Shown here: positions 27,740 through 47,466 of the stretch, one piece after another | Layout: each line of letters starts with the position of its first letter | Numbering within the stretch: the stretch's first letter is position 1 | Assembly (NCBI GenBank): GCA_045654905.1 | Contig: JAZOOH010000024.1 | Coordinates: 557-64,556 of the forward strand | DNA: 64,000 nucleotides | From: Acutalibacteraceae bacterium | GTDB lineage: Bacteria > Bacillota > Clostridia > Oscillospirales > Acutalibacteraceae | Direction of reading: 5' to 3' | Notes under the pieces: generated by a model | Databases searched by the model: none | Seen by the model: only the letters and a program-made list of their open reading frames with translations | What the model was told of the DNA's origin: nothing | Translations under genes and position numbers: made by a program

Positions 27740-29320
27740 TTACATTTCTACTGCTGCACGCTCAACCTTAAGTCCTTTTGTATAGCGCACCATAAATTTA
27801 TTGAAGCTTTCCTTAAGCTTTTCATCTGCTGTTGAGGTAACCATTTTTTGTGTTGCAAAAACATCCTCCTCAAGGAATTCTGCAAGAGATTTTCCACCCT
27901 TGCTTACCATATAGGCAGCAAGCACCGCAATACCCCATGCACCGCCCTCGCCTGCTGTTTCCATAACTGAAACAGGTGTATCCATAACAGCAGAAAGCAC
28001 GTTTTGCCCTACAAGAGGAGTTTTAAAGAAGCCGCCGTGACCTAAAATTTTATCTATGCCAACGTTTTCCTTCTTTAAAATATCAAGACCAGTTCGCAAT
28101 GCGCCAAAGCAGGTAAAGAGCTGCACCCTCATAAAGTTAGCTAAGCTAAAGTTGCTGTCCGGCTCTCTTATAAGAAGCGGTCTACCACTTTCAAAGCCTG
28201 TAATATGCTCACCTGAAAAATAGTTATATGAAAGAATGTTGCCTAAATCGTCATCTGCCTCAAGGCTCTTTTTAAAGAGTGCTGTAAAAATATCACCCAT
28301 ATTAAGAGAAATGCCCATTGTATCCGCAAAATCCTTAAAAAGATTTGCCCAAGCGTTAATATCTGAGGTACAGTTGTTACAATGCACCATTGCTACTGCA
28401 TCACCTGCAGGAGTTGTTACAAGGTCAATTTCCTCGTAGCGTTTTGAAAGCATTTTTTCAAGAACAATCATAGCAAAAACAGAGGTGCCTGCTGAAACGT
28501 TACCTGTTCTTACACCTACGGAGTTTGTTGCAACCATACCTGTGCCTGCATCACCCTCCGGCGGACACATTGGAATACCCTCCTGAAGGTCGCCCTCCGC
28601 ATCAAGTAAAAGAGCACCCTCTTTTGTTAATGCGCCTGCACTCTCACCTGCAGAAAGCACCTTTGGGAGAATATCCTGAAGCTTCCACGGGAAGCCCTTA
28701 ACCTCCTCAAGGGAATTAAATTTTTCAATATATGCTTCGTTGAATTTTCTTGTATTATCATCTATAGGGAACATACCTGATGCCTCGCCTACACCTAACA
28801 CCTTTTCACCTGTAAGCTTCCAATGAATAAAGCCTGCAAGAGTTGTAAAATAAGTAATATCCTTGACGTGTGGCTCGTTTATTAAAATTGCTCTGTAAAG
28901 ATGAGCTATGCTCCAGCGCTGCGGAATATTAAAGGAGAATAAATCCGAAAGCTTTGCTGCCGCCTCACCTGTAATGGTATTTCTCCACGTTCTGAAGGGT
29001 ACAAGAAGGTTTCCTGCAGCATCAAAAGGCATATAGCCGTGCATCATACCGCTTATGCCTATTGCCTTTAAGGCTTTAAGCGTTACACCGTACTCCTCCT
29101 GCACGTTTTTCTTAAGGGATGCATATGCACCCTTCATACCTGCATAAATTTCGTCAAGAGAATAGGTCCAGATGTTATCTACAAAGCTGTTTTCCCAATC
29201 GTAAGCACCTGAAGCAATAGGCGCATTGCTTTCATCAATAAGCACAGCTTTGATTCTTGTTGAGCCGAACTCAATACCTAAAACTGCTTTTCCGTTTAAA
29301 ATAAGCTCTTTATTTGTCAT
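27740..29320 (-). CDS. FGGY-family carbohydrate kinase (xylulokinase/ribulokinase-like; substrate not assignable)
   Basis: [17 protein letters not shown]-terminal ATPase motif, [11 protein letters not shown] and GGAWG motifs, 526 aa. Confidence 0.8.
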
Positions 29321-31021: not shown

Positions 31022-31058
31022 TAAAAATAAAAGAGATGATACCAAAAGGCATCATCTC
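31022..31058 (-). terminator. Terminator of rpsU
   Basis: GAGATGAT/ATCATCTC stem followed by TTTTATTTTT on the minus strand. Confidence 0.6.
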
Positions 31059-31064
31059 TCCATT

Positions 31065-31241
31065 TTAATAATATTTGCGTTTACGAGCAGCCTCGGATTT
31101 TTTCTTTCTCTTTACAGAGGGTTTTTCATAATGCTCTCTTTTACGTACTTCCTGAATAACACCGTCTCTTGATGTTTGTCTTTTGAATCTACGAAGAGCG
31201 CTATCTAAGGACTCGTTTTCTTTAACTTTTACCTGACTCAT
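31065..31241 (-). CDS. rpsU: 30S ribosomal protein S21
   Basis: Not in the track because it is under 60 aa. My translation is [58 protein letters not shown]. Confidence 0.9.
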
Positions 31242-31366
31242 TTAACATTCCCTCCCTCCGTTGTCACCAACAAAGGTATAATTATCATAATACAAAATCT
31301 ATTATACAAGAAACGTAGCAAAGTGTCAAGCAAATTTTTTTAATATTTTGTTAAGTTTAATTATAC

Positions 31367-32191
31367 TTATTTCGCGTAGTTGCCAACCATAATCATATAC
31401 TCACCGATTTGTGCACCAAATTCGGGAGCACCATCCATAATAAGCTTACCCTTTTGAACAGATTCAATCATATCGTCAAGGGACATTAAAATACCTAACG
31501 CGCTGTCAAGATTATTAAAACGCATTGTAAAGAATGGTAACGCTCTTTTGTATTCACCGCGGCCTGCCTTACTTTTACCTGCCTTAATTCTTATGTAAGC
31601 AGAAACGGTAGGCTCACCGTCAACCTTCCACGCGTAAACACGGTCCGGACTCTTGGAGGTCCAGTCGTGAATTGTTTCGTGGCCCATTTTGTTAAGGGTG
31701 CTTATACCCGTAGAAAGAAGGTAAAAATAGCATTTTACTAAAAGGCGCTTATCCTCTTCCTTTGCAGGCGGAGCCTCAAGACCTAAAAGATTAGCCATTT
31801 TAAGAAGTGCCATCATAAACACGCCAAATTCATAAATGAAATTAACACCCTTCATTTTAGGAAGAGTTGCAGGGCCTATTTTACCCTTAAAGAAAGCGTT
31901 CATTGCTTCAACGCTTTTGAATTCAAGCTCAACAAATTTTTGCTTATCTACCCTTTGAGCAACCTTGTTTGCATGAATAAGCCACTCATCACCGTTAACA
32001 ACAAAGTGTGTTGCCCATTTTCCGTCCGGTGAATCACTGTCAAGACAGCTCACCTGGAAAACGCAATTAACCTTTTCGAACTTCTTTTTAAGTGATGGAA
32101 CGTCTGCAACGATAGTCTTTAAAAGAGGCAAGGCACCGCAAAGGAATATTTTATTTGTATAAAGTTGTTCTTTGTCTGCCACAAAGCTCAT
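31367..32191 (-). CDS. SCP2-like domain protein, paralog 2 (function unknown)
   Basis: 274 aa. The C-terminal LDDMIESVQKGKLIMDGAPEFGAQIGEYM resembles the SCP2 GKL-x-x-x-G helix motif. Its architecture parallels 35624-36391. Confidence 0.5.
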   Translation of the reverse strand: MSFVADKEQLYTNKIFLCGALPLLKTIVADVPSLKKKFEKVNCVFQVSCLDSDSPDGKWATHFVVNGDEWLIHANKVAQRVDKQKFVELEFKSVEAMNAFFKGKIGPATLPKMKGVNFIYEFGVFMMALLKMANLLGLEAPPAKEEDKRLLVKCYFYLLSTGISTLNKMGHETIHDWTSKSPDRVYAWKVDGEPTVSAYIRIKAGKSKAGRGEYKRALPFFTMRFNNLDSALGILMSLDDMIESVQKGKLIMDGAPEFGAQIGEYMIMVGNYAK

Positions 32192-32232
32192 TCCCTTCGA
32201 TTTTTAAATTAAAAAACAAAATCTTTCGGATT

Positions 32233-32426
32233 TTTGTAGAAATACTTAGGTTTGGGGTTTTGCGACCCCGTAGCGTACAAAGGTACGTGAGTTCGGGTCG
32301 CAACGAGCCAAAAATAAGTGCTCTTTAGCGTAATTTTGTATAGAAGTGCTTAGATTTGGGTTTTTGCGACCCCGTAGCGTACAAGGGTACGTGAGTTCGG
32401 GTCGCAAAGGGCCAAAGATAAGTGCT
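32233..32426. repeat. Tandem direct repeat (two units of about 100 nt), each a long imperfect hairpin
   Basis: The unit core TTTTGCGACCCCGTAGCGTACAA.GGTACGTGAGTTCGGGTCGCAA occurs twice. GCGACCC/GGGTCGC and GCGTAC/GTACGT pair, and flanking CTTAG.TTTGG / CCAAA.ATAAG pair. Confidence 0.75.
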
Positions 32427-32437
32427 TATATGCAAAA

Positions 32438-33448
32438 TTAAAATTCGTCATCCCAGTCGTTATCCTCTTCAAAATCAGCCTTCATAACCTCACGAACTGC
32501 TGCTATGATACCGTTTGAATCTATGCCAAGTGTAGACATAATATCCTCCTGGAGACCTATTGGTGCAAATTCATCTTGAATACCAAGCTTTTTAAATGCA
32601 CAGCCCTTACCGGATTCTACAACTACCTCTGCAACTGCTGAACCAAGACCACCTAAAACTGTGTGGTCCTCAACAGTAATAATACGGCGTGTTTCTGTAA
32701 CAGCCTTTAAAATAGCCTCTTTATCAATCGGCTTAATTGTGTGCATATCTAAAACACGAACCTTAAGACCGTCGGCATTGTTAAGGAAATCTGCTGCCTG
32801 AACAGCCTGGAAAACACAAGAGCCGCAAGCAATAATTGTGAGGTCTGTACCCTCGTGAACCTCAACAGCCTTACCGATTTCGAAGCCGTAGTCTGTTCCC
32901 TTGTAAAGAACACGGTCAAAGCCACGGTTAATTCTTATATAGAAAGGACCCGGTGTGTTGTATGCTGCCATAACTGCATTATAGGTTTCGTAGCCGTCTG
33001 CAGGGCAAATAACTGTAAGATTAGGAATAGAACGAGTTAAGGCGAGGTCACAAATTGCATGGTGAGTTGAGCCTGCCTGACCAAAGGAGGTACCTGAGTG
33101 TGTAGCAATTACCTTTGCGTTTACGTTCTGATAGCAAAGGTCTGTGTGAAGCTGGTCTGCTGAACGGAATGATGCGAATTGTGAGAAGGTTGAAAGGAAT
33201 GGTACAAGACCTGCCTTTGCCATACCTGCTGCAATACCGAACATATTCTGCTCTGCAATACCCACGTTAAAAAATCTGTCAGGGAATTTCTTTTGGAAAT
33301 CACCGATTTTTGTTGATTTTGCAAGGTCAGCTGTTAAAGCAACAACCTCGGGATGCTCCTCTGCTAATTCTACGAGTGCCTGACCGTAAATTTCTGCAGT
33401 TGAAAGAGAAGTTGACTGCTCTGCTGTATAAGATAAACCACCAGCCAT
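32438..33448 (-). CDS. Transketolase, C-terminal (pyrimidine-binding plus C-terminal domain) subunit
   Basis: YGQALVELAEEHPEVVALTADL, NVGIAEQNM and HSGTSFGQAGSTHH motifs. ATG 33448 lies 1 nt after the stop of the N subunit and is preceded by AAGGAGGG. Confidence 0.9.
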   Translation of the reverse strand: MAGGLSYTAEQSTSLSTAEIYGQALVELAEEHPEVVALTADLAKSTKIGDFQKKFPDRFFNVGIAEQNMFGIAAGMAKAGLVPFLSTFSQFASFRSADQLHTDLCYQNVNAKVIATHSGTSFGQAGSTHHAICDLALTRSIPNLTVICPADGYETYNAVMAAYNTPGPFYIRINRGFDRVLYKGTDYGFEIGKAVEVHEGTDLTIIACGSCVFQAVQAADFLNNADGLKVRVLDMHTIKPIDKEAILKAVTETRRIITVEDHTVLGGLGSAVAEVVVESGKGCAFKKLGIQDEFAPIGLQEDIMSTLGIDSNGIIAAVREVMKADFEEDNDWDDEF

Positions 33449-33449
33449 A

Positions 33450-34322
33450 TTATTCGCCCTCCTTTTCAGCACGTTCTACACGTTTTTTATATGATTCTTC
33501 AAGAGATTTTTTACCGATTTCGTATTTTTCGGTATCGAATGCACCGTAGTGCCATTTGTAGTCGCCCTCAATAAAGTCGATACCGCAGCCCTTAACTGTG
33601 TCGCAAAGAATCAACACAGGCTTATCTGTTTCGTTGTTATATGCAAAGTCAATAGCTTCGCAAAGCTCTTTAATGTTGTTACCGTCTATCTTTTTAACAA
33701 TAAAACCAAATGCCTCCCACTTGTCTGCGAGCGGCTCAAGAGCCATAACCTCCTCAGTAGGACCGTCTATCATATTGTGGTTACGGTCTACAAAGGTAAT
33801 AAGATTTGTAAGCTTAAAGTGAGCTGCAGACATTGCTGCTTCCCAGTTTGAGCCTTCGTCTAATTCACCGTCACCCAAAACCACAAAGGTTTTATAATCC
33901 TTCTTTAAAAGGCGTGCTGCAAGAGCAGTACCTACGCCAATTGAAAGTCCGTGACCGAGTGAGCCTGTGGAAGCATCTACACCCTTAACCTTGTTTGCAT
34001 CAAGGTGAATACCCATTTTTGAGCCTGAAAGGTTGAAGGTTTTAAGAAGCTCCTTATCATTAAAGCCTAAGTCACAAAGAACAGGTGCGTAAGCAATACC
34101 TGCATGTCCCTTACTTAATATGAATCTGTCGCGGTCCTCCCAATCAGGATTTTCCACCTTAATATTCATATATTTGTGGTAGCAAACCGTCATAATATCC
34201 ATGGCGCTCATACCGCCACCAATATGACCGCTGCCTGCCCAATACGTTGTATCAAGGCAAAGGTTACGAAGCTCGTGTGCTTTCTTTTCAAGCTGGAGCC
34301 ACTCTTGTTTAGTTAATGCCAT
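33450..34322 (-). CDS. Transketolase, N-terminal (ThDP-binding) subunit
   Basis: SGHIGGGMS, SKGHA and VVLGDGELDEGSNWEA (GDG..N ThDP motif). Confidence 0.9.
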   Translation of the reverse strand: MALTKQEWLQLEKKAHELRNLCLDTTYWAGSGHIGGGMSAMDIMTVCYHKYMNIKVENPDWEDRDRFILSKGHAGIAYAPVLCDLGFNDKELLKTFNLSGSKMGIHLDANKVKGVDASTGSLGHGLSIGVGTALAARLLKKDYKTFVVLGDGELDEGSNWEAAMSAAHFKLTNLITFVDRNHNMIDGPTEEVMALEPLADKWEAFGFIVKKIDGNNIKELCEAIDFAYNNETDKPVLILCDTVKGCGIDFIEGDYKWHYGAFDTEKYEIGKKSLEESYKKRVERAEKEGE

Positions 34323-34345
34323 AAGATTTACCTCCCGTAATTATA

Positions 34346-35611
34346 TTATTTAAAAAGTTCCGGATGATTATTTTTAACTACCTTAAACGCTTCATCTGCA
34401 ATTTCAATAGTTCTGTTAATATCCTCATGAGTCAATGCCGCATTTATAAAGTGGTTGTGGTGAGATGCAAAGAAAACGCCACGGTTTACACACTCTGCAA
34501 TCCAATCCTGGTGAAGAAGCATTGAATCATCATTTGCAATTCTTAAATAGAAAAGTGCCGGTGGGCCTGAGGTTACAAGGTCAAAGCCGTTCTCCTTACC
34601 TGCCTTTTTAAGACCCTCTAAAAGCTCTGTACCAAGGTCGTTAAAGAGCTTTGGTGCATTTATTGCTTTAAGCTTATTTATACAAGCAATACACGCTGCA
34701 AACGGTACTGCACTCATCCAGTAGGAGCCTGTGTAGGAGAGAGAGGATGCCGCACTTCTTAAAAACTCCTTACCGCAGAAGGCTGACATATTGTAGCCGT
34801 TGGCAAGTGCCTTACAGAAGCAAATAATATCTGCCTCAAATCCAAAGAAATGGTCTGAGCCTGCTAAGTCAAGACGGAAGCCTGCACGAACGTCGTCTAT
34901 AATAAGAACAATATCCTTTTCGGTACAAAGCTTTCTTACCTCCTGCCAAAAGCCGTCTACAGGGAAAGCATTGTCGAAGAAGTTGCCGTGGTTGTATGGC
35001 TGAGCAATAATTGCTGCAACCTCACCCTCGTTTTCCTCCAAGGTCTTTTTAAGACCCTCAATATCATCCCACTTACAGTAGAGGTTGTTTGCTACGTCCT
35101 CGGGAGTAACACCGGGGTAGTCAATTTTTTGTACCATTGGTGAAACGCCGTGGTAGAAGCCGTTAAAGAAAATAAGCTTTTTTCTGTGTGTGTAAGCACG
35201 TGCTGTTAAAATAGCGCCCTGCGTTGCATCATTACCGTTTTTTGCAAAGAATGCCCAGTCTGCTGTATTAACCGTATCTACCAAAAGCTCCGCACACTCT
35301 ACCATAACCTTATCGGGTGAAGAAGTACAGTTACCCTTTTTAATTTGCTCTATAGCGGCATTGTCTACGTCCTCGTCACAATAGCCTAATATATTAGGAC
35401 CGTAAGCACACATATAGTCTATGTACTGATTTCCGTCTACGTCCCAGAAATAGGTGCCCTTTGCTTTTTCTGAAAAGCGAGGCCATCTGTTAACCGGAAT
35501 AAACTGACCCTCTGCAGGGCCTAAATGTCCGTAAACGCCTGATGGAATGACCTTTGTTGCTCTGTCATACCACTCGTTAGATGCTGTTGTTGAGTATAAT
35601 GGAAAAGACAT
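34346..35611 (-). CDS. Class III PLP aminotransferase, glutamate-1-semialdehyde-aminomutase-like
   Basis: IPSGV, DVDGNQYIDY, IIDDVRAGFR and a FCKALANG Lys region, 421 aa. Confidence 0.85.
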   Translation of the reverse strand: MSFPLYSTTASNEWYDRATKVIPSGVYGHLGPAEGQFIPVNRWPRFSEKAKGTYFWDVDGNQYIDYMCAYGPNILGYCDEDVDNAAIEQIKKGNCTSSPDKVMVECAELLVDTVNTADWAFFAKNGNDATQGAILTARAYTHRKKLIFFNGFYHGVSPMVQKIDYPGVTPEDVANNLYCKWDDIEGLKKTLEENEGEVAAIIAQPYNHGNFFDNAFPVDGFWQEVRKLCTEKDIVLIIDDVRAGFRLDLAGSDHFFGFEADIICFCKALANGYNMSAFCGKEFLRSAASSLSYTGSYWMSAVPFAACIACINKLKAINAPKLFNDLGTELLEGLKKAGKENGFDLVTSGPPALFYLRIANDDSMLLHQDWIAECVNRGVFFASHHNHFINAALTHEDINRTIEIADEAFKVVKNNHPELFK

Positions 35612-35623
35612 TTTGTAGCCCCC

Positions 35624-36391
35624 TTATGCTAAATATAATGCTACACGGTCTAAAATACGGTTAACGTTGTCAAGCATATTAACCATACCGTGCATTTCTA
35701 TTTTTCCCGTGCCTATGCAGGTTAAAGCATTTACCTTGCCGTCAAACAAGGCTCTTGCTATTTCAATTGAATCAAAAATCATAGCCGCTCTGTATTTTTC
35801 AGGAGGCTTTTTAACCGTAACAAGACGGTTGTCCTTACAAATAAGCTCAACGCCTATATCGTTTTTAATGCCTATAAAAATACTGCCGTCTATAATGTTA
35901 GAAGCACTGAATTTTCCGATTTCGTCGTTATTACCGATTTGTGAAATAGCAACGCCTATTGTGTAAAGCATAAGACGGGTGCTTCTTTCAAAAAATACAG
36001 GGTCCTTTAAATCGTCGTCACTTGCTCTCATATATTTTGAAAGCAGGTCTGTAAGAGGCACGAATTTTTTAAGCAAAAAGCTTATGTGTGTAAAGCCCTT
36101 TGACGGAATAGGTGTAACAGTACCGTCTATAAGGCCGTTGAACTTTTCCGGTGATGAAAACGGAAGCTTAATATCACAAGCGCCGCAGCCCTGCTCCATA
36201 CGGCATTTGCCGTTTTTGAAAAACAGAGTTGCCGACGGGCCGCCCTTAACCTCAAAACCGATTGAAAGCGGCTTTTGGTCCTTAATAATTTCCGCTGCCT
36301 CAGGCACTAAATCACAAAGATTTTCCAAAGTGCCGAGAACACCGAACATATTTATGTATGCTAACGTTCTTGCATCCATTAAATTCTGCAT
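35624..36391 (-). CDS. SCP2-like domain protein, paralog 1 (function unknown)
   Basis: 255 aa. The C-terminal ARALFDGKVNALTCIGTGKIEMHGMVNMLDNVNRIL matches the SCP2 signature pattern. Confidence 0.5.
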   Translation of the reverse strand: MQNLMDARTLAYINMFGVLGTLENLCDLVPEAAEIIKDQKPLSIGFEVKGGPSATLFFKNGKCRMEQGCGACDIKLPFSSPEKFNGLIDGTVTPIPSKGFTHISFLLKKFVPLTDLLSKYMRASDDDLKDPVFFERSTRLMLYTIGVAISQIGNNDEIGKFSASNIIDGSIFIGIKNDIGVELICKDNRLVTVKKPPEKYRAAMIFDSIEIARALFDGKVNALTCIGTGKIEMHGMVNMLDNVNRILDRVALYLA

Positions 36392-36440
36392 AAATTTAAC
36401 TCCCTTCCGAGCTTTTTTACGTTCATAACAATACTATTTT

Positions 36441-36469
36441 ATTTTAACAGACTGTACTATTAAAGTCAA
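36441..36469 (-). promoter_or_regulatory. Candidate promoter of the minus-strand cluster operon
   Basis: On the minus strand: TTGACT (36469-36464), a 17-nt spacer, then TAAAAT (36446-36441). Confidence 0.45.
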
Positions 36470-36512
36470 CAAATCTTTGTGCCTATTTGTTAATTTTTTT
36501 ATCACTTTTTAC

Positions 36513-36542
36513 TTGACATTTTGTATTTATAAATAGTATAAT
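36513..36542 (+). promoter_or_regulatory. Candidate promoter of the plus-strand cluster operon
   Basis: TTGACA (36513-36518), an 18-nt spacer, then TATAAT (36537-36542). The inverted repeat AGTGAA-N6-TTCACT at 36546-36563 follows immediately. Confidence 0.5.
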
Positions 36543-36601
36543 CATAGTGAACGTAAATTCACTTTTGTGTCTTTAAATATTTGTTTTTGGAGGTCTTTAA
36601 A

Positions 36602-38092
36602 ATGGATACAAGATTCGCAATTTCCGAATACCATGACGCACAAGCCGTTACTAAACAGCTTGACGAGCTTATCAAAAAGCCTATTTACACAATCAAGCCG
36701 GAGGTTCTCAAAAACTACGAGGAAGAATATTTCGACAAAAAATGTGCAAAAAGTAAGGATATGATTAAAGAAGCTCAGCAGGTTATTCCCGGCGGTGTTC
36801 AGCATAACCTTGCTTTCAACTATCCTTTCCCACTTGTTTTCACAAAAGCAGACGGCATGAAGCTTTATGACGTTGACGGTAACGAATACTTCGACTTCCT
36901 TCAAGCGGGTGGTCCTACAGTTCTCGGCTCTAACCCAAAAGAGGTAAGAGACCAGGTTATTGACCTTCTTAACACCTGCGGTCCTTCAACAGGTCTTTTC
37001 CACGAGTTTGAATATAAATTAGCAAAGAAAATTTCTGACAGCGTTGAAACAGTAGATATGTTCCGTATGCTTGGTTCAGGTACTGAGGCTTGTATGGCTG
37101 CTGTTCGTGTTGCAAGACTTGCTACAAAGAAAAAGAACATTGTTAAAATGGGTGGCGCATACCACGGCTGGAGTGACCAGCTTGGCTACAGCATTCGTGT
37201 TCCCGGCTCAAAATTCACACAGGCACACGGTGTTCCGCTTTACCTCTTTAAGCATACACAGGAATTCTTCCCTAACGACCTTGATTCACTTGAAAGAGTT
37301 CTTTTCAAAAACAAATTCAAGGGCGGTACTGCTGCTGTATTTATGGAGCCAATCGGTCCTGAAAGCGGTACAAGACCACTCGATAAGGACTTTAACAAAG
37401 GCGTAGAGGCACTCTGCCGCAAATACGGCGCACTCCTTATCTTTGACGAGGTTGTTACCGGCTTCAGAATTGGTATGGCAGGCGCACAGGGCTACTTTGG
37501 CGTTTCTCCTGACCTTACAATCTTTGGTAAGGTTATTGCCGGTGGTTACCCGGGTGCCGGCGGTATCGGTGGTAAAAAAGAATACATGAAATACCTTGGC
37601 GCAGGTCTTGATGCAAGCGGTGAAAAGGTTAAGAAAGCATTTATGGGCGGTACAATGGCTGCTACTCCGCTTTCTTGTGTTGCAGGCTACTACACACTTG
37701 AAGAAATTGACAGACAAAACGCTTGCCAGAAGGCAGGTCAAATGGGTGACAGACTTACAAAGGGTCTTCAGGAGCTCATTAAAAAGTACGACCTTCCTTT
37801 CGTTGCATTCAACCAAGGCTCTGTTTGTCATATTGATACAGTTGGTACAATGCACTACTCAATTAACTGGTCTAAGCCATGGCAGATTCCGGGCGTTCTT
37901 TCAGCTACAAGCGAAAGAAAGAAGGAAATGCAACACATGGGTGCTGCTTATATGGCAGAGGGACTTGTTACTCTTGCAGGTAGCCGTCTTTATACAAATG
38001 CTCAGTACACACCTGAGCTTATTGATGAAGCTCTTGTAAGATTTGACAGAGTATTCCAAAACGTTGCTATTAAAGAAGGACAATCTAAATAA
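36602..38092 (+). CDS. Class III PLP enzyme, glutamate-1-semialdehyde-aminomutase-like, with a roughly 60-aa N-terminal extension
   Basis: IPGGVQHN, DVDGNEYFDF, LIFDEVVTGFR and a FGKVIAGG Lys region. ATG 36602 follows GGAGG. Confidence 0.85.
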   Translation: MDTRFAISEYHDAQAVTKQLDELIKKPIYTIKPEVLKNYEEEYFDKKCAKSKDMIKEAQQVIPGGVQHNLAFNYPFPLVFTKADGMKLYDVDGNEYFDFLQAGGPTVLGSNPKEVRDQVIDLLNTCGPSTGLFHEFEYKLAKKISDSVETVDMFRMLGSGTEACMAAVRVARLATKKKNIVKMGGAYHGWSDQLGYSIRVPGSKFTQAHGVPLYLFKHTQEFFPNDLDSLERVLFKNKFKGGTAAVFMEPIGPESGTRPLDKDFNKGVEALCRKYGALLIFDEVVTGFRIGMAGAQGYFGVSPDLTIFGKVIAGGYPGAGGIGGKKEYMKYLGAGLDASGEKVKKAFMGGTMAATPLSCVAGYYTLEEIDRQNACQKAGQMGDRLTKGLQELIKKYDLPFVAFNQGSVCHIDTVGTMHYSINWSKPWQIPGVLSATSERKKEMQHMGAAYMAEGLVTLAGSRLYTNAQYTPELIDEALVRFDRVFQNVAIKEGQSK

Positions 38093-38149
38093 TTTAACTA
38101 AAGCACGGATTTTTTCCGTGCTTTATTGCTAAAAAGGAAGGTATTTATT

Positions 38150-39352
38150 ATGGATATTCTCGAAGCAAAACAAATAGTTATAAAAGCGGGTCACGAATTA
38201 TTAAAGGAGGGGCTTATTGTACGTACGTGGGGTAACATAAGCTGCAGAGTAAATGAAGAACAGTTTGTTATTACTCCGAGCGGCAGAGCCTACGAGGACT
38301 TGACTCCTGATGACATTGTTCTCGTAAACATTGCCGACCTTTCCTATGACGGTGACGTTAAGCCGTCTTCTGAAAAAGGTATTCACGCATCCTGCTACCA
38401 ATTAAGACCGGATTGCAATTTTGTAATTCACACTCATCAGGCAAACGCTTCTATTGTAAGTGCATTAGGTTATGATGTTGACTCTCTTACAGAAGAACAT
38501 TCTGCTATAATCGGCAACGACGTTCCTTGTGCTGCTTACGGTCTTCCGGGCACAGGCAAATTAAGACAAGGTGTTATAGATGCGCTTAACCGTTCAAAAT
38601 CCAAGGCAATTATTTTAGCACACCACGGCGCTGTTTGCGTTGGCAGTGATTATGACGACGCCTTCAAGGTTGCTTCTACCTTAGAGGACGTTTGCGAGAA
38701 ATACGTGGCAGACCGCTGCAGCGAGGTTTCAGGAAAGGCTGTAGACTCTCTTAACGCTGTTAAGGATTATATTCTTAGTGTATTCACCTCTGCCGAGGGC
38801 TACAAAAAATGTGCAGAAATCCCTGCTTTAGACAGTGAAAAGTCAGACAATACAGTAACCTTCTTTACGGACGGCGCAGAGCTTGTAAAATCAGACTTAA
38901 ACGGCGCTGTAATTGGTGAGGGTACTCTTCCTGAGTGCGCAGAGCTTCACCTTGCAATTTACAATAAAAGAGAAGACGTAAACTTTATACACCACTCTCA
39001 AAATGAATACGTAAAGGCAATTTCTGCAGAGGGCAAAACCATGAAGCCTCTTCTTGATGACTTTGCACAGCTTATAGGCCCAACAGTTAAATGTACAAAG
39101 GACGTAGCTGCTGCAAAGAGCGTTGTCAGTGCGCTCGGCAACAAAAACGCCGTGCTTTTAAAGGATAACGGTGCAATTTGTGTTGCAGGCACAAAATATG
39201 ATGCAGAAGCAATTGAAATTGTTATGGATAAGGGCTGCAAAACACTTATAGGCGCAAAGCTTTACACAGGCGTAAAGGCAATAAACGCTTTTGAAGCAAA
39301 CCTTATGAGAATAATTTATAAAATGAAGTATTCTAAAAAAGCGGGCAAATAA
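38150..39352 (+). CDS. Fused double class II aldolase/adducin-domain protein
   Basis: The N-terminal half has TWGNIS, ITPSG, SSE, HTHQ and LAHHG (metal His ligands). The C-terminal half is a second copy with IHHSQ and LKDNG, so the last His position is not conserved. ATG 38150 follows AAGGAAGG. Confidence 0.8.
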   Translation: MDILEAKQIVIKAGHELLKEGLIVRTWGNISCRVNEEQFVITPSGRAYEDLTPDDIVLVNIADLSYDGDVKPSSEKGIHASCYQLRPDCNFVIHTHQANASIVSALGYDVDSLTEEHSAIIGNDVPCAAYGLPGTGKLRQGVIDALNRSKSKAIILAHHGAVCVGSDYDDAFKVASTLEDVCEKYVADRCSEVSGKAVDSLNAVKDYILSVFTSAEGYKKCAEIPALDSEKSDNTVTFFTDGAELVKSDLNGAVIGEGTLPECAELHLAIYNKREDVNFIHHSQNEYVKAISAEGKTMKPLLDDFAQLIGPTVKCTKDVAAAKSVVSALGNKNAVLLKDNGAICVAGTKYDAEAIEIVMDKGCKTLIGAKLYTGVKAINAFEANLMRIIYKMKYSKKAGK

Positions 39353-39445: not shown

Positions 39446-39532
39446 TTAGTTGCACTCAAGGCTAAGCCTTGCGGTTTTTATTTGTTGTGTATTAAATCAT
39501 AGGTACGACTTACGTAATAATCATATACACCG

Positions 39533-42500
39533 TTAATTCGAAACGGATGCTTCTGTTACAGTAACATCGGCGCTCGCCTTAAAGCTACTGCTTGCCTTAC
39601 CGTTTACTGCTTTTACTGTATAACGGTATTTTGCACCGCCGGCAAGCTCTGTATCAATCCAAGAAAGCTTTGAACTTGCAAGAGTGCCCTTTTTAGTCCA
39701 ACCGGTCCAAGCACCATTTACATACTCTGAACGGTAAACCACGTAGTTTTTTGCACCTGCAACCTTATTCCAGCTAACACTTATACCATTAGCAGCTTCT
39801 GCAGCCTTAACCGTTGGCTGAGCAAGACGGAGTAAACCGCTTGTTGCCATAAAGGTACTTGCGTATGAGCCGTTTACTGCTTTTACAGTATACTTGTAAT
39901 ATGTTCCGCTCTTAACGTTTTTGTCCGTCCAGGTAGTAGCCGTTACCTTACCTCTGTTAGTCCAACCGGACCATTTCTTTGTTTTTGCGTTGTAGGTTGC
40001 GCTATAAACAATGTATTGTGTTGCACCGTCCACCTTATTCCACGAAACCTTAATTCCGTTTGAAGTATTTGCGAAGGTAACGTTTGGCTGTGCTAAGAAC
40101 ATCAATGTTTTTGATGCTGTAAATGAGCTTTGAGATGCTCCGTTAACAGCTCTTACAGTGTAGCGGTAGAGTGTACCGCTTACAGCACTTGTATCTGTCC
40201 AAGCAAACACGGTGTTTTTAAGTGTACCCATACTCTTCCATGAGGTCCACTTGCCGTTTACCTGCTCTGAACGATAAATAACGTAATTCTTTGCACTTGC
40301 AACCTTGTTCCATTTAACTGTAACACCTGCTTTTGCATTTGCAATTGTTACCTTTGCTTCTGCAAGACGAACAATTGAAGCTGCTGCTGTGAAGGTGCTC
40401 AACGTCTTACCGTTTACAGCTCTTACTGTGTACTTGTAAACAAGACCTGCTTTTGCGCCTTTATCTGTCCAGCTGGTTGATTTTACCGAGCCCATATTGC
40501 TCCATCCGGACCATTTCTTTGTTGAAGAATTGTACTGTGCGCGATAAATTGTGTAGCTTTGTGCACCTGCAATTTTACCCCATTTTACAGTAATTCCTGC
40601 TTTTGCATTTGTAGTTGTTACTACAGGCTCTGCAAGGAATAATAAGCCTGCACTTGCAACAAACGTACCCTGTGACGTGCCGTTTATTGCTTTTACTGTA
40701 TAGCGATAAGTTTTACCGCTTACAGCCGTTGTATCTGTGTAAGCCTTTACGTCTGATGCTGTTGTTTTTAAGGTAGTCCACTTTGACCAGGAGGTACCAG
40801 ATTTTTCTGAACGATAAACCACGTATTCCTTTGCACCTGCTACTGCAGTCCAGGTAACCTTAACGCCTGTTTTTGCATTTGCGATTGTTACCTTTGGTGC
40901 TGTCAGGTAAACTAAAGAAGCTGTGCCCTCGTAAGCACTTGCTACGCTACCGCTTGCTAATGCACGTACAGTATACTTATAAATACCGCCGGCTTTTACA
41001 TCCTTATCTGCAAAGGAAGAAACAGATGCCTTCTGGTCAGAGATTTTTGTCCATGCTGACCATTTGCCATTTGTGTACTGGGCACGGTAAATTCTGTAGG
41101 TTGAAGCACCGTCTACCTTGTTCCAGCTAACTGTAAAGCCTGTGCTTGTTATCTTTGCGGTTGTTACAGGCATTGCCAAATATTTAACTGTTTTTACGCC
41201 GCTGAACGCACCCTGTGCGGAGCTGTTTATACCACGAACCTTATAAGTATAGGTTGTGTTGGATTTTGCTGTTGTATCTAAATATTCAAGGCTGCTTGTT
41301 GTAGCAATTTTTACCGGTGTAGCACCATTTGTGCTTCTGTAAATTTCGTACTCTGTAGCATTCTCTGCTGCTGAATACGCTACCTTTACACCGCCCTTTG
41401 CGTTTTCTGCAGTGATTGTTTTAATACCACCGCAGGAAGCCTCTGTAAATGAAATGGATTCAATTATACCTGTTTCCGAAGTAACTATTCTTACAGGCAT
41501 TTTTGTTTCTGAAAAATCTGCTTCCCAATCCATTTCTAAAACAAATTTGCCATTCTGATATTTTAAGCTTCTGGCATAGAGGTAGCCTTCCAGATAATCC
41601 GGTATGCGTACCTTTAACGTTTTTGTTTTTGCATCATATGAAGGTGATGAAGTAAAGTCTATTTTTGTTATATCAAATATGCCGTACGCTAACTCTCTTG
41701 CCTCATCTAATGTAACTACTGCATAATAGCCCTTTTCATCCTTCTCAACAACCTCAAAGTCATCTGTATACAAAAGGGATGCACACATTACGAGCACCTC
41801 ATCTACTGCTACGCCCTTAATTGTACCGCTTAAGCCGTTAAAATCCACATTATAAAGATACTTTGCATAACCGTCAGCAAGCATTGCAGACATTGCGCCT
41901 ACGCTGTATGCTATATCATTTCCCTGTAAGTATAACATTGCGTCAAGCCATTTATTAGCTGAAAGCACCTTGCTTTCAATAAATTCCTCCGGACCGCCTG
42001 CTTTTGCGTAACGCGTTTTAAAGTTTTTATAAGAGCCGGTTTTTTCGTCTATCTCGAATTCAATCTCTAAGGTTAATGCGCCCTTATCTGTATAAAGCGT
42101 ACCGACAACAACCGATTCATTGCCCAATCCCTGTTCAAAATACTTTGCTGTATAAACCTCTTTGGTACCGTCTGCCTTTGTAAGAGTAACCTTAAGGTCG
42201 GTATCTCCGCTTAAATCTATTGCTGTATAGGTATTAGCTACCACTGAAACCTTAAAATCACAAGTAACGTTTCTGTATGAAGCCTCTGCATGGTTTAAGC
42301 CAATTTTGTATTTCTGCTCATAATCCATACAAGGGAAGGATACGTCGAAGTATGAGCCGTCAATTTTGTCACCTGCTTCAACGTTTTTATACGTTTTTGC
42401 AGTGCCGTCTGCATACGTAAGCTTAACCGTATATGTAATTTGGTCAGGGAAGTATACTGCAAACTGATTGTCATCTGAATCTGTCATGAAAAAACTGCTT

Positions 42501-44596
42501 GTGTTTTCTACAAGTGCTGCTTCAGGAGTAACCTCAAGCTTTGTTACTTCCTTGTCACCCTTTTTTAAAACAAAGGTATAATCTACAGTGTATCCCTCAA
42601 AGGTTGCTTTAACGGTATTCTTTCCAACCGTCAATGGATTTTCTATAGATTCATTTGTTTCAAAATCTATACCAAATCCAATAAATCTTACATACTCTGT
42701 ATAAGAATACGTTTTCTTAGTACCATCTTTATAGTTAAAGGTAATATCAGGATAGGTCAGATTAACGTCGTGGTGGAAGGAAAATTCCTCTCCATCATAC
42801 TCGAACCAACCGTCAACATATTGAGTTAATTCCTTTGTAGGGGTAAGAGTAACACTCTCAACCGGGTCTTCAACAATATTAAAGGTAAACTCTGCCTCAA
42901 CACCGTTAAAGATTGCTTTACCGTTATTTACACCCCTTTTAAGCGGATTGTAAGCATCCTGGTATATCTCAATTTCCCAAGAATACCCGCTCTGGTAAAG
43001 CTCATTGTCGGTTTTGTATTCCTTAACTGTACCGTCTGTAAAGGTAACCTTAAAGTCAACGTCTAAATCATCTAAGAAATAATAGTAATACTCGTCTCCG
43101 CCTTCTTCATCTGTCGTCCAATAGCCGTTTTTATTCTCTATTATTTCACTATTAACAATAGCCTCTACCTTTTTAACCGGATTAGCAATAATTTCATACT
43201 CGAATTCAACTACTTCACCGAAAATTGCCAATATACCCTTGTGCTTGCCTACGGTGAGCTTTGTTTGACTGTCCTGCTTACCGAGGTAGGTTACAAAGGT
43301 TATTTCATCAAAATAATCGTGTACGTCGTTAAGAGTAAACGTATCTGCCGCTTTAGCTGCATCTTTATACTCTACTGTAACCTCTATAGCATCATTATCA
43401 ATATCATAATTGAAATAAGGCACCATGTAGTACTCATCTTTTTCCTCGTCATATACACTTTCGTAAGACGTATAACCGGAAACATCTTCCATAAGAGGCT
43501 CTAAAATTTTAACGGAAACACTCTTTACGGGAGATTCGTCAATTGTAAAGGTATAATCTGCCTCATGGTTAAGAAGGTCAACCTTCACCGTATTTTCACC
43601 GGGCTTAAGGATTGTCTCCTCCGTACTATAGCTCGGCTCATCACCAAAAAGGTCGTAGCACTCATACCAACCGCAGGTTACAGGGTCTCTGCCATCATTA
43701 AAGGTAACCGTAATCTCCGGGTAGGTTGCCGTAATGTCATAATTGAAAGAACCAAGCCCCTTAAACGGGTCGTCAGGGTCAGCCCAGTCGTGCGTACCAT
43801 CTATAAACTCGCGCAACTCAGTCGTAGGTTTTATAGTAATGCTTTCTATAGGGTCAGCTAAAATCTCAAACTCGTAATCTACAGTAAAGCCCATAAACTC
43901 TACGCTTGTTTTATAAACACCGGGTTCAAAAACTACACCATCACTCTGCTCGTCATACATTTTAGGGAAGAATCCGAAAACTTCGTAGCAGTCACCCCAG
44001 TTGCAGGTTACAGAGTCTCTGCCGTCATTATAATTAACGGTAACCATAGGACAAGTTTCCATTATTTCATAATAGAAATACTTACCCTTCGACTCATCTT
44101 CAGAGTCTATCCACTGATACCAGCCGTTCTCGTTTTCTTTTAATTTTTCTGTTGCTGTAACTTCAATGCTTTCAACCGGGTTTTCCACAATTGTAAATTC
44201 AAATGAGGTTCTTATAACGTCCTCATTAGAATTATAATAAACATCAATCTCCATTGTGTGTGTACCAAGACCAAACTCCGTTTCCACATCCTGGGTTGTT
44301 ACTTGAGAAATATAGTCAACGTAACCATAAATCTCATTCTCCTGACAGGTAACCTTGCTACCGTCAGAATAGATAATAACGTACGTGGGTCTCACATTAT
44401 ATACCACGTCGTAATAAAAGTATGATGTAACCCCCTCCTCGTTATACCAACCGTCGCATTTTTCAATTAAGTTCCTGTTTGCAGTAACGGAAATTTCTGT
44501 AATAGTTTTTTCTCCATCCGCTGCAAAAGCCGTTAACGGAAAGCTTGCAAGAACAATTAATATTGCAAGCAATGAACATAAGACCTTTCGCTTCAT
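39533..44596 (-). CDS. Giant secreted repeat protein: seven copies of an N-terminal module of about 110 aa, a unique middle region, then seven Fn3-like repeats of about 75 aa
   Basis: MKRKVLCSLLAILIVLASFPLTAFA signal peptide. ATG 44596 lies 9 nt after GGAG; the track start at 44611 is also possible. The N-terminal module boundary (N/D)P(V/I)(E/K)S(I/V) recurs. The C-terminal modules recur as G(V/I).V.W..V.GA..Y.(I/V)YR...G.W..W....T.....Y.Y.V(K/R)A.NG. Confidence 0.85.
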   Translation of the reverse strand: MKRKVLCSLLAILIVLASFPLTAFAADGEKTITEISVTANRNLIEKCDGWYNEEGVTSYFYYDVVYNVRPTYVIIYSDGSKVTCQENEIYGYVDYISQVTTQDVETEFGLGTHTMEIDVYYNSNEDVIRTSFEFTIVENPVESIEVTATEKLKENENGWYQWIDSEDESKGKYFYYEIMETCPMVTVNYNDGRDSVTCNWGDCYEVFGFFPKMYDEQSDGVVFEPGVYKTSVEFMGFTVDYEFEILADPIESITIKPTTELREFIDGTHDWADPDDPFKGLGSFNYDITATYPEITVTFNDGRDPVTCGWYECYDLFGDEPSYSTEETILKPGENTVKVDLLNHEADYTFTIDESPVKSVSVKILEPLMEDVSGYTSYESVYDEEKDEYYMVPYFNYDIDNDAIEVTVEYKDAAKAADTFTLNDVHDYFDEITFVTYLGKQDSQTKLTVGKHKGILAIFGEVVEFEYEIIANPVKKVEAIVNSEIIENKNGYWTTDEEGGDEYYYYFLDDLDVDFKVTFTDGTVKEYKTDNELYQSGYSWEIEIYQDAYNPLKRGVNNGKAIFNGVEAEFTFNIVEDPVESVTLTPTKELTQYVDGWFEYDGEEFSFHHDVNLTYPDITFNYKDGTKKTYSYTEYVRFIGFGIDFETNESIENPLTVGKNTVKATFEGYTVDYTFVLKKGDKEVTKLEVTPEAALVENTSSFFMTDSDDNQFAVYFPDQITYTVKLTYADGTAKTYKNVEAGDKIDGSYFDVSFPCMDYEQKYKIGLNHAEASYRNVTCDFKVSVVANTYTAIDLSGDTDLKVTLTKADGTKEVYTAKYFEQGLGNESVVVGTLYTDKGALTLEIEFEIDEKTGSYKNFKTRYAKAGGPEEFIESKVLSANKWLDAMLYLQGNDIAYSVGAMSAMLADGYAKYLYNVDFNGLSGTIKGVAVDEVLVMCASLLYTDDFEVVEKDEKGYYAVVTLDEARELAYGIFDITKIDFTSSPSYDAKTKTLKVRIPDYLEGYLYARSLKYQNGKFVLEMDWEADFSETKMPVRIVTSETGIIESISFTEASCGGIKTITAENAKGGVKVAYSAAENATEYEIYRSTNGATPVKIATTSSLEYLDTTAKSNTTYTYKVRGINSSAQGAFSGVKTVKYLAMPVTTAKITSTGFTVSWNKVDGASTYRIYRAQYTNGKWSAWTKISDQKASVSSFADKDVKAGGIYKYTVRALASGSVASAYEGTASLVYLTAPKVTIANAKTGVKVTWTAVAGAKEYVVYRSEKSGTSWSKWTTLKTTASDVKAYTDTTAVSGKTYRYTVKAINGTSQGTFVASAGLLFLAEPVVTTTNAKAGITVKWGKIAGAQSYTIYRAQYNSSTKKWSGWSNMGSVKSTSWTDKGAKAGLVYKYTVRAVNGKTLSTFTAAASIVRLAEAKVTIANAKAGVTVKWNKVASAKNYVIYRSEQVNGKWTSWKSMGTLKNTVFAWTDTSAVSGTLYRYTVRAVNGASQSSFTASKTLMFLAQPNVTFANTSNGIKVSWNKVDGATQYIVYSATYNAKTKKWSGWTNRGKVTATTWTDKNVKSGTYYKYTVKAVNGSYASTFMATSGLLRLAQPTVKAAEAANGISVSWNKVAGAKNYVVYRSEYVNGAWTGWTKKGTLASSKLSWIDTELAGGAKYRYTVKAVNGKASSSFKASADVTVTEASVSN

Positions 44597-44815
44597 TTTT
44601 ATCATCTCCATTTTATAATTAGCTCAGATTTATATCTATACCCACCTTGAGCCATAATAAAATTATATTCCTTTTTTCAGACATTTACTATACACACATT
44701 CCCCAAAATTCACAAAAAATATTTATGCAATTGTTTCCAATACAAAGCAACAACCTAAAACCTACCAAGCATTAAAAATGCCCTGCCTTAAATCTTAAGA
44801 CAGAGCGTTTTAACC

Positions 44816-45997: not shown

Positions 45998-46005
45998 TTT
46001 ATCAC

Positions 46006-47454: not shown

Positions 47455-47466
47455 TTCCCTCTTCCT

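Follow-up and report, generated by a model that had tools for sequence, protein, structure and literature searches.

A conserved operon of Acutalibacteraceae combines predicted tandem SCP2-fold proteins with a FumI-related aminotransferase and a split transketolase

PigD and PigE, of the prodigiosin pathway, are a natural pair of a thiamine diphosphate (ThDP) enzyme and an aminotransferase. In another such pair, AniP and AniQ of anisomycin biosynthesis, a transketolase (TK)-like enzyme and an aminotransferase act on non-phosphorylated, partly hydrophobic carbonyls (PMC11387542), and in a synthetic TK-transaminase cascade an aldehyde is converted to a 1,3-dihydroxy-2-ketone and from there to a 2-amino-1,3-diol (PMC5813273). 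Here we describe an operon with a comparable pairing of enzymes, located in a 64,000-nucleotide stretch of an Acutalibacteraceae genome (contig JAZOOH010000024.1; the whole stretch is referred to below as the window). It consists of five minus-strand genes in the order E-D-C-B-A, which encode a class III aminotransferase (D), the two subunits of a split TK (C and B) and two proteins with a predicted SCP2 fold (E and A). A divergent plus-strand pair, F-G, encodes a second aminotransferase-like enzyme and a fused aldolase (Table 1). The synthetic cascade and the TK variants made in the laboratory handle short substrates, whereas the pairing found here is natural and is encoded in one operon together with SCP2-fold proteins, and its activity is predicted. 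Clusters of the AniP/AniQ and PigD/PigE type are patchily distributed, biosynthetic and equipped with tailoring enzymes; the operon, in contrast, is core-like across the whole family.

The nearest characterised relative of D is FumI of Sphingopyxis sp. MTA144 (PDB entry 6hbs), with which it shares the class III fold. With pyruvate as the acceptor, FumI turns the amine at C2 of hydrolysed fumonisin B1 (2-amino-12,16-dimethylicosane-3,5,10,14,15-pentol) into a 2-ketone (PMC3136697). This substrate is a sphinganine analogue, a 2-amino-3-hydroxy long-chain polyol, and the exchange of amine for ketone at C2 takes place beside a C3 hydroxyl on a long chain. The FumI gene lies in a proteobacterial fumonisin-degradation cluster with a carboxylesterase, a setting unlike that of D, and we know of no SCP2 partner or TK in that cluster. 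SCP2-fold members with a known role are almost all lipid binders, and UbiJ provides a precedent for an SCP2 protein that presents a hydrophobic intermediate to soluble enzymes. On the basis of gene content, conservation, predicted folds, active-site residues and homologies, we propose, at a probability of roughly 0.35, that the operon breaks down or detoxifies lipophilic 2-amino-1,3-diols (sphingoid-type long-chain bases) by D-mediated deamination followed by TK cleavage. The substrate, the direction of the reactions and the binding of substrate by the SCP2-fold proteins are the parts of this proposal that we infer.

A sequence-only reading of the locus had stated that no characterised pathway contains this combination of enzymes, and our literature search agreed with it: no pathway was found that matches the combination of TK, SCP2 protein, aminotransferase and sphingoid-type substrate. 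The sulfo-TK route for sulfoquinovose and the apulose-4-phosphate TK route for apiose are defined by a co-located sugar isomerase, kinase, reductase and transporter, and no such pathway-specific gene is present among the seven genes or the flanking genes scanned. Similarly, the cluster and its neighbours encode no alpha-oxoamine synthase or ceramide synthase domain of the kind used in bacterial sphingolipid synthesis (Spt/CerS/CerR), so that sphingoid bases, if they are handled at all, would be handled by different chemistry. The parts belong to known families; their combination is new, conserved and uncharacterised.

Proteins and conservation of the operon

Domains of the window proteins were called by profile searches against Pfam and NCBIfam, and the TK, Aminotran_3 and Aldolase_II assignments of the sequence-only reading hold in both. 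D and F each match Aminotran_3 (PF00202) well above the cut-off of 30.5 bits (141.6 and 178 bits, respectively), and the Schiff-base lysine is common to D, to F and to the alignment of FumI with D. The two proteins, which are 28% identical, had been described together as resembling glutamate-1-semialdehyde aminomutase (GSAM). This is apt for F, which in the PDB is nearest to GSAM (4e-65) and D-phenylglycine aminotransferase, but it understates D. The best PDB match of D is FumI (6hbs; E = 1.1e-85), with residues 9-414 aligned end to end with FumI residues 5-405 and the lysine that binds pyridoxal 5′-phosphate (PLP) conserved, and GSAM is only the next best (3.3e-52). F matches FumI at no better than 1e-24 and is not of the FumI type, GSAM being far closer. 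The best NCBIfam models of both proteins are GSAM (HemL) models, with scores far under the cut-offs: D reaches 204 and 225 bits and F 271 and 284 bits, compared with 527 for TIGR00713 and 398 for NF000818. D is best described as specifically FumI-like, FumI being its nearest characterised class III relative over the full length; the activity predicted from this kinship would be deamination of a long-chain 2-amino-3-hydroxy compound with pyruvate.

Subunits C and B are most similar among solved structures to the split TK of Carboxydothermus hydrogenoformans (6yak for C, E = 2.6e-69; 6yaj for B, E = 2.5e-80), with which they share the two-chain architecture and, presumably, an alpha2beta2 assembly (PMC7661550). 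Each subunit matches half of model NF004559, with 272 and 235 bits; the cut-off of 488 is set for a full-length protein, and the subunits are split. Catalytic residues were mapped onto E. coli TktA, human TK and the C. hydrogenoformans enzyme. C retains the equivalents of E. coli H26, H66, H100, D155, N185 and H261, and B those of S385, E411, H461, H473 and R520. The TK core is present, including the GDG..N ThDP/metal motif, the catalytic Glu (E411) and the donor-site histidines H26, H66, H100, H261 and H473. AniP has lost both the histidine-rich TK motif and R520, which the operon TK retains. From these residues, C and B are predicted to form a working ketol transferase.

The operon TK departs from canonical enzymes of the pentose-phosphate type (EC 2.2.1.1) at two positions that contact the substrate. 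In E. coli TK the substrate phosphate is bound by R358, S385, H461 and R520, which are conserved in TK and DXS, and D469 hydrogen-bonds sugar hydroxyls, selects the stereoisomer and is required for efficient catalysis (PMC11387542). Of the four phosphate ligands the operon TK retains three (S385, H461 and R520) and lacks R358, leaving the canonical four-ligand set incomplete. Alignments with the human and C. hydrogenoformans TKs place Ala18 of B at the R358 position; a plain pairwise alignment with E. coli TktA places Gln11 there, which is also non-basic, and there is no Arg or Lys anywhere in residues 1-30 of B. The Asp of canonical TK at position 469 (D477 in yeast) is missing as well, as B has GQAG in place of GEDG and carries Ala125 at this site. 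Ala at D469 and loss of the R358 Arg are found in 65 of 65 readable operon orthologues, unlike the C. hydrogenoformans split TK, which keeps both the GEDG Asp and the Arg.

Mutations at R358, S385, D469 and R520 open TK to aromatic aldehydes (PMC7661550), and directed evolution that included D469T shifted TK from phosphorylated to non-polar aliphatic aldehydes (PMC5073344). The positions changed in the operon TK overlap with those of the E. coli variants (D469T/E, R358, S385, R520), in which the laboratory changes favour non-phosphorylated aliphatic aldehydes (PMC5073344). The residue pattern suggests that one substrate of C+B may lack the hydroxyl read by D469 (at C4 of the ketose, equivalent to C2 of the aldehyde) and may rely less on a distal phosphate. 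In codon usage B comes close to GroEL, with effective codon numbers of 39.3 and 38.1, respectively; the median of the window is about 46.

The SCP2 assignment of E and A is carried by predicted structure. E scores 18.1 bits against Pfam SCP2 (PF02036), below the gathering cut-off of 21.3, and A has no match in Pfam or NCBIfam. Both proteins were modelled with AlphaFold2 on homologue alignments, and the models were compared with the PDB using Foldseek. For the E model (predicted local distance difference test score, pLDDT, of 89; predicted template modelling score, pTM, of 0.87), all 46 matches with E < 0.01 are SCP2-fold proteins or domains, and the A model (pLDDT of 85) likewise matches SCP2-fold proteins exclusively at this threshold. 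Among the matched folds are UbiJ-SCP2, sterol carrier proteins and the C-terminal, alkyl-binding domain of alkylsulfatases; UbiJ-SCP2 (6h6o), sterol carrier protein 2 and the C-terminal domain of the alkylsulfatase SdsA1 are at once the top and the sole significant structural matches. The order of secondary-structure elements in the models gives two SCP2 units per chain. The sequence-only reading, which had called both proteins SCP2-like, is thus upheld at the level of the predicted fold but not at that of sequence thresholds, and E and A are best regarded as putative tandem SCP2-fold proteins.

In contrast to UbiJ, SdsA1 and sterol carrier protein 2, E and A stand alone as double-SCP2 proteins of 255-274 amino acids that form families of their own below the Pfam SCP2 threshold. 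They are 22% identical to each other by BLASTP and are collinear over 224 columns (hhalign E = 1.7e-5, probability 79%); we treat them as probable remote paralogues. Their database relatives, among the members seen, are all labelled ‘hypothetical protein’ and all come from uncultured genomes. In a profile search the E family comprised 585 clusters at 50% identity, with nearly all members 250-260 amino acids long. A candidate metal or cluster site in E (C-x5-C-x2-C) was dropped, as the motif is not kept in distant homologues.

The operon was found in at least 563 species-representative genomes. Counts for related loci refer to the best 80 of these, and for each test only loci with enough contig were counted. 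E-D-C-B-A occurs in unchanged order in all 56 loci with enough downstream contig, and A accompanies the TK in every one of these (56/56); E and A are obligate SCP2-fold partners of the operon. Median identity to the window protein is 93% for B, 90% for C, 85% for D, 82% for A and 80% for E, and one contig of a metagenome-assembled genome encodes an E protein 99% identical to that of the window. More distant members have unrelated genes on either side (RmuC, GH3, PNP, NusA), which indicates that E-D-C-B-A travels as a block.

The divergent pair is less constant. G, together with F, lies upstream in 48 of 62 loci, and F-G is absent from the other 14; the median identities of F (62.5%) and G (63.5%) are close to that of pepP (63%). 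Beyond G nothing is conserved, with helix-turn-helix (HTH), DUF4430, GatA/GatB and GNAT genes found there in different genomes. On the evidence of these comparisons, F-G is probably a lineage-restricted accessory pair that was added or retained in a subclade only. F combines the strongest codon bias with low conservation, an unusual pairing of high expression and fast evolution: its effective number of codons, 36.9, is the lowest of the 37 window genes scored, below even GroEL.

For deeper sampling, ten distant representatives of the E family were taken, of which eight lineages (eleven loci) could be read downstream of the E homologue. In all eight, a full-length D orthologue directly follows E, with E proteins 29-54% and D proteins 38-68% identical to those of the window. 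The TK and A are absent from all eleven loci. These lineages include an anaerobic-digester bacterium, a member of the Christensenellaceae and a SpoIIE-bearing firmicute. As E-D recurs in the absence of the TK and A, we take the ancestral module to be a tandem-SCP2 protein and a FumI-like aminotransferase, to which the TK and another SCP2 protein were added in the Acutalibacteraceae/Oscillospirales clade. A single co-conserved unit of all seven genes is not supported, since F-G is missing from 14 of 62 loci and evolves faster and only E and D form the core; the functional unit is 2 + 3 + 2 genes, not seven.

The surroundings of the distant E-D pairs gave no recurrent clue. TetR, saccharopine-dehydrogenase-like, HAD phosphatase, GH42-like and Aminotran_5 neighbours were considered and set aside because none of them recurs, and a sphingomyelinase lead, an Exo_endo_phos gene upstream of one E homologue (locus L084), was dropped, as it had no PDB or NCBIfam match. 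Two single cases may be recorded. In one (L094, 2795-6722) a gene of the saccharopine-dehydrogenase family and an HAD-IB phosphatase gene flank E-D on its own strand, and in the other (L088, 83-736) the pair has a divergent TetR regulator. TetR-family proteins often sense lipophilic ligands. The neighbours in these two loci could point to a hydrophobic ligand that bears an amine or a phosphate.

Proposed function and alternatives

In the proposed route, sphingoid-type bases would come from the diet, the host or Bacteroides. E, plus A in this clade, would hold the hydrophobic tail, and D would transfer the C2 amino group to a 2-oxo acid, giving a 1,3-dihydroxy-2-ketone, that is, a 4-deoxy-ketose with a long tail. 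C+B would then cut the C2-C3 bond, passing the two-carbon ketol unit to a sugar-phosphate acceptor and freeing a fatty aldehyde. Speculatively, F-G could apply the same logic to a 1-phosphorylated, 4-hydroxylated relative, with the amine turned into a ketone and a FucA-type cleavage yielding dihydroxyacetone phosphate and an aldehyde.

Several features of the TK would fit such a substrate. All of its residues for contact with the C1 hydroxyl and C2 carbonyl of a ketol donor are still in place. Retention of the donor-site His implies a C1 hydroxyl, which fumonisin does not have; the change from Asp to Ala implies that there is no C4 hydroxyl; and the distal phosphate site is weakened. Together these features would suit a deaminated base of the sphinganine type, which is a 1,3-dihydroxy-2-alkanone and hence formally a TK donor. 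If the two-carbon unit goes to a sugar phosphate, the retention of S385, H461 and R520 would be accounted for. A catabolic or detoxifying direction is favoured because FumI works in the deaminating direction, because the E-D pair stands alone in many lineages, and because the cluster has no aldehyde-forming or N-acylating enzyme. The sequence-only reading had named an aminated ketose, a polyol or an amphiphilic amine as the possible substrate; the evidence leans toward the last of these, and an aminated ketose or polyol is less supported.

A number of observations weigh against this proposal. The substrate is read from homology and pocket residues only, the contexts of E-D in other lineages show no consistent lipid signal, and profile scans of the operon found neither a ceramidase nor an aldehyde dehydrogenase or reductase, and no gene for transport or regulation. 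The SCP2 fold is not always lipid-binding, as the C-terminal domain of Eis illustrates. With three of the four phosphate ligands kept, both substrates of the TK could be phosphorylated small molecules. The ketols made and cleaved by canonical TK are 3S, whereas the natural D-erythro configuration of sphingoid bases is 3R; with aliphatic aldehydes, the C3 stereoselectivity of TK does change on single mutation of H26 or D469. The operon proteins are more conserved than the housekeeping protein pepP (medians of 80-93% vs. 63%), and the TK subunits and F have a GroEL-like codon bias, so that a core, highly expressed and perhaps biosynthetic function would fit better than occasional detoxification.

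The same enzymes might run in the opposite direction, with the TK taking a two-carbon ketol unit from hydroxypyruvate or a ketose phosphate and joining it to a fatty aldehyde, and D aminating the product to a sphingoid-like 2-amino-1,3-diol, to be used as a membrane lipid or signal with no need for serine palmitoyltransferase. This would account well for an operon that behaves as a core gene set in so many genomes, outdoes pepP in conservation and has TK subunits close to GroEL in codon bias. It also has parallels, as the TK-transaminase cascade gives chiral 2-amino-1,3-diols in vitro and in engineered cells (PMC5813273), and biosynthesis has natural examples of a ThDP enzyme paired with an aminotransferase, such as AniP/AniQ (PMC11387542). 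Nevertheless we consider a biosynthetic direction unlikely: the cluster contains no fatty-aldehyde-forming reductase, N-acyltransferase or head-group enzyme, FumI, the closest characterised relative of D, deaminates, and in many lineages E-D occurs alone, with no source of ketol. To our knowledge, sphingoid lipids have not been reported in these Clostridia. A more specific version, in which Gram-positive gut anaerobes would synthesise sphingoid bases independently of serine palmitoyltransferase from a fatty aldehyde and the two-carbon ketol unit of a sugar, with the tandem-SCP2 proteins as channelling carriers, is distinctly unlikely.

Two further explanations dispense with a lipid substrate for the TK. 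The operon could serve to break down a soluble amino sugar, amino-polyol or aminated ketose, with D and F deaminating, the TK and the aldolase cutting the keto-sugar, and E and A acting as scaffolds or chaperones. Traits of sugar-phosphate enzymes are certainly present, namely S385, H461 and R520 in the TK and a full FucA phosphate and zinc site in the active half of G, and the strong codon bias suggests a high-flux pathway. A kinase gene of the FGGY family is also found at a distance of three genes, with synteny in 27 loci, but in several loci it is not beside the operon, and no sugar transporter, isomerase or regulator was found in or beside the operon in profile scans of the cluster and its flanks. 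That E and A both have a fold of almost exclusively lipid binders, that D is nearest to an enzyme acting on a C20 amino-polyol, and that loss of D469 removes recognition of sugar hydroxyls, with R358 gone too, makes this account doubtful. Alternatively there may be no shared pathway at all, and C+B could be the housekeeping pentose-phosphate TK, co-transcribed with an unrelated E-D(-A) module. Clostridia and thermophiles commonly have split TKs, which can be of the ordinary kind (PMC7661550), C+B has lost none of its cofactor and donor-site residues, E-D functions elsewhere in the absence of the TK, and a search of the 64-kb window and of the flanks of the 80 loci found no second TK. This is nonetheless very improbable, as the linkage is invariant (56/56) across differing contexts, with gaps of 1-23 bp and A always following the TK, and as none of the 65 orthologues has R358 or D469, residues described as conserved in TK and DXS alike, whereas the nearest ordinary split TK keeps both. 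On balance, we favour the degradation or detoxification of sphingoid-type bases.

Locus layout and surroundings

All seven open reading frames, the divergent spacer, the single nucleotide between C and B and the tandem hairpin repeat are present as the sequence-only reading had placed them (Table 1). The minus-strand genes are closely spaced, with gaps of 12 bp (E-D), 23 bp (D-C) and 1 nt (C-B) followed by 246 bp between B and A; the C-B gap depends on the ATG at 33448 as the start of B. The divergent spacer contains a perfect promoter match on the plus strand (TTGACA-18-TATAAT, 36513-36542, 12/12). The minus-strand site (TTGACT-17-TAAAAT, 36469-36441) matches at 10/12 positions and has an extended TG. 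F starts with the ATG at 36602, preceded by a GGAGG ribosome-binding site, and a terminator-like site lies beyond G at 39457-39471. No transporter, regulator or kinase is encoded within the seven-gene cluster according to the Pfam and NCBIfam scans, in agreement with what had been noted from the sequence.

Table 1. Features of the operon, the divergent pair and the regions between them (positions in the window)
Feature	Position	Strand	Description
E	35624-36391	-	255 aa; tandem SCP2 fold by model; first gene of operon
D	34346-35611	-	421 aa; class III PLP aminotransferase, predicted FumI (aminopentol aminotransferase) type; Aminotran_3
C	33450-34322	-	290 aa; split TK, N-terminal (ThDP/PP) subunit; Transketolase_N, E 3e-47
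B	32438-33448	-	336 aa; split TK, Pyr + C-terminal subunit; Transket_pyr + Transketolase_C
Hairpin repeat	32244-32437	-	two tandem copies, ~95-100 nt each, in B-A spacer
A	31367-32191	-	274 aa; second tandem-SCP2-fold protein (model); last gene of operon
Divergent control region	36392-36601	both	210 bp; one promoter-like site per strand
F	36602-38092	+	496 aa; GSAM-like class III PLP enzyme; Aminotran_3, E 3e-52
G	38150-39352 (alternative start 38126)	+	~400 aa; fused double class II aldolase, 2 x Aldolase_II

Both proteins of the divergent pair differ somewhat from their first description. F does have an N-terminal extension, but of about 45-50 amino acids rather than about 60, as residue 48 of F aligns with residue 4 of GSAM. 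G does contain two stretches of Aldolase_II, the class II aldolase/adducin family (PF00596), but its second half lacks two of the three zinc histidines. When the N-terminal half is aligned with FucA, the sequence motifs SSE, HTH and HHG are found, with all three zinc histidines, the catalytic Glu and the phosphate-binding motifs in place. Aligned with the N-terminal half, the C-terminal half reads IHHSQ (HHS for HTH) and KDNG (DNG for HHG), and it is probably non-catalytic given the missing metal ligands; a full FucA-like site is thus predicted for the N-terminal half of G only. G shares with FucA (1fua and relatives) the zinc ligands, the catalytic Glu and the phosphate-binding Ser/Thr/Gly/Asn motifs, and differs from it in the fusion to a degenerate second copy, in falling under all NCBIfam equivalog cut-offs, and in being partnered with a GSAM-like PLP enzyme where FucA is partnered with fucose isomerase and a kinase. 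A homologue search returned proteins of 400-406 amino acids, all from the same clade, and added no new gene context. A TTG at 38126 is an alternative start for G, but the length of the homologues makes 38150 the probable start.

The hairpin repeat between B and A, which had been listed within the minus-strand unit, is an inserted element and not an ancestral component. It occurs in only two copies in the window, both in this spacer, has a predicted RNA fold of -68.8 kcal/mol (z = -7.8) and has no match in Rfam. The length of the B-A spacer varies among genomes, being 3-30 bp in most loci and 87-608 bp in others. In the longer spacers, relatives of these hairpins lie in one orientation or the other, and changes in their outer stems compensate each other around a conserved core, CGTACCTTTGTACG. 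This core is the inner stem-loop of a family of hairpins of about 95-100 nt, present at this site in many Acutalibacteraceae genomes in one or two copies (loci L006, L007, L015, L017, L018, L022, L023, L026, L033, L048-L052 and L055). Other AT-rich palindromic repeats occupy the spacer in, for example, L002-L004, L008, L030 and L048, and elsewhere there is no spacer at all. The B-A spacer looks like an insertion hot spot for elements resembling repetitive extragenic palindromes (REP) or miniature inverted-repeat transposable elements (MITE). The hairpins may modulate the expression of A relative to that of the TK.

Directly after the operon lies rpsU (58 amino acids, 31065-31241), which has its own perfect promoter (TTGACA-17-TATAAT) and a strong terminator with a 14-bp stem, and the operon therefore ends at A. 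With these signals rpsU forms a compact monocistronic unit on the minus strand (31030-31329). It is followed by pepP, udg and the FGGY kinase gene (27740-29320), whose positions had been given correctly; the kinase matches only the XylB model, at 109 bits, far below the cut-off of 380. The rest of the window is of a housekeeping or cell-surface character, with hydF, GroEL, ABC exporters, a tRNA synthetase and large surface proteins. An Rfam scan of the 25-45 kb interval returned just two sub-threshold chance matches to microRNA families.

Three of these neighbours deserve mention in their own right. At 44816-48510 on the minus strand, a HydF of 393 amino acids (GTPase plus the HydF dimerisation and tetramerisation domains) is encoded beside two radical-SAM genes, one of which has the BATS domain expected of HydG or HydE. 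The two are presumably hydE and hydG, and from their position next to hydF the organism probably makes an [FeFe]-hydrogenase. At 25619-27253, also on the minus strand, a secreted protein of 544 amino acids combines a C-type lectin domain (Pfam Lectin_C, E = 2e-20), which is uncommon in bacteria, with a Listeria-Bacteroides repeat. The third is a surface protein of 1692 amino acids (39533-44611, minus strand) with many tandem repeats of about 90-100 amino acids, whose C-terminal half shows a recurring, FN3-like ‘...GVKVSWNKV.GA..Y.VYRS...’ pattern.

Significance of the operon

Gut and rumen Clostridia constantly meet antimicrobial and signalling sphingoid bases from the diet, the host and Bacteroides. 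If the proposal is correct, the operon would contain the first natural TK shown to act on a lipid ketol, and would provide the first case in which the C2-C3 bond of sphingoid bases is enzymatically cleaved or made by other means than the chemistry of serine palmitoyltransferase or sphingosine-1-phosphate lyase. On the practical side, a natural TK with Ala at the D469 position could be of use in the biocatalysis of aliphatic ketols, and FumI relatives from anaerobes in the detoxification of fumonisin in feed. E and D constitute a widespread and wholly unannotated two-gene module, every one of the 585 clusters of the E family being labelled ‘hypothetical protein’. Even if the substrate has been guessed wrongly, the operon marks a conserved and probably highly expressed pathway in a large uncultured family, the Acutalibacteraceae of the Oscillospirales.

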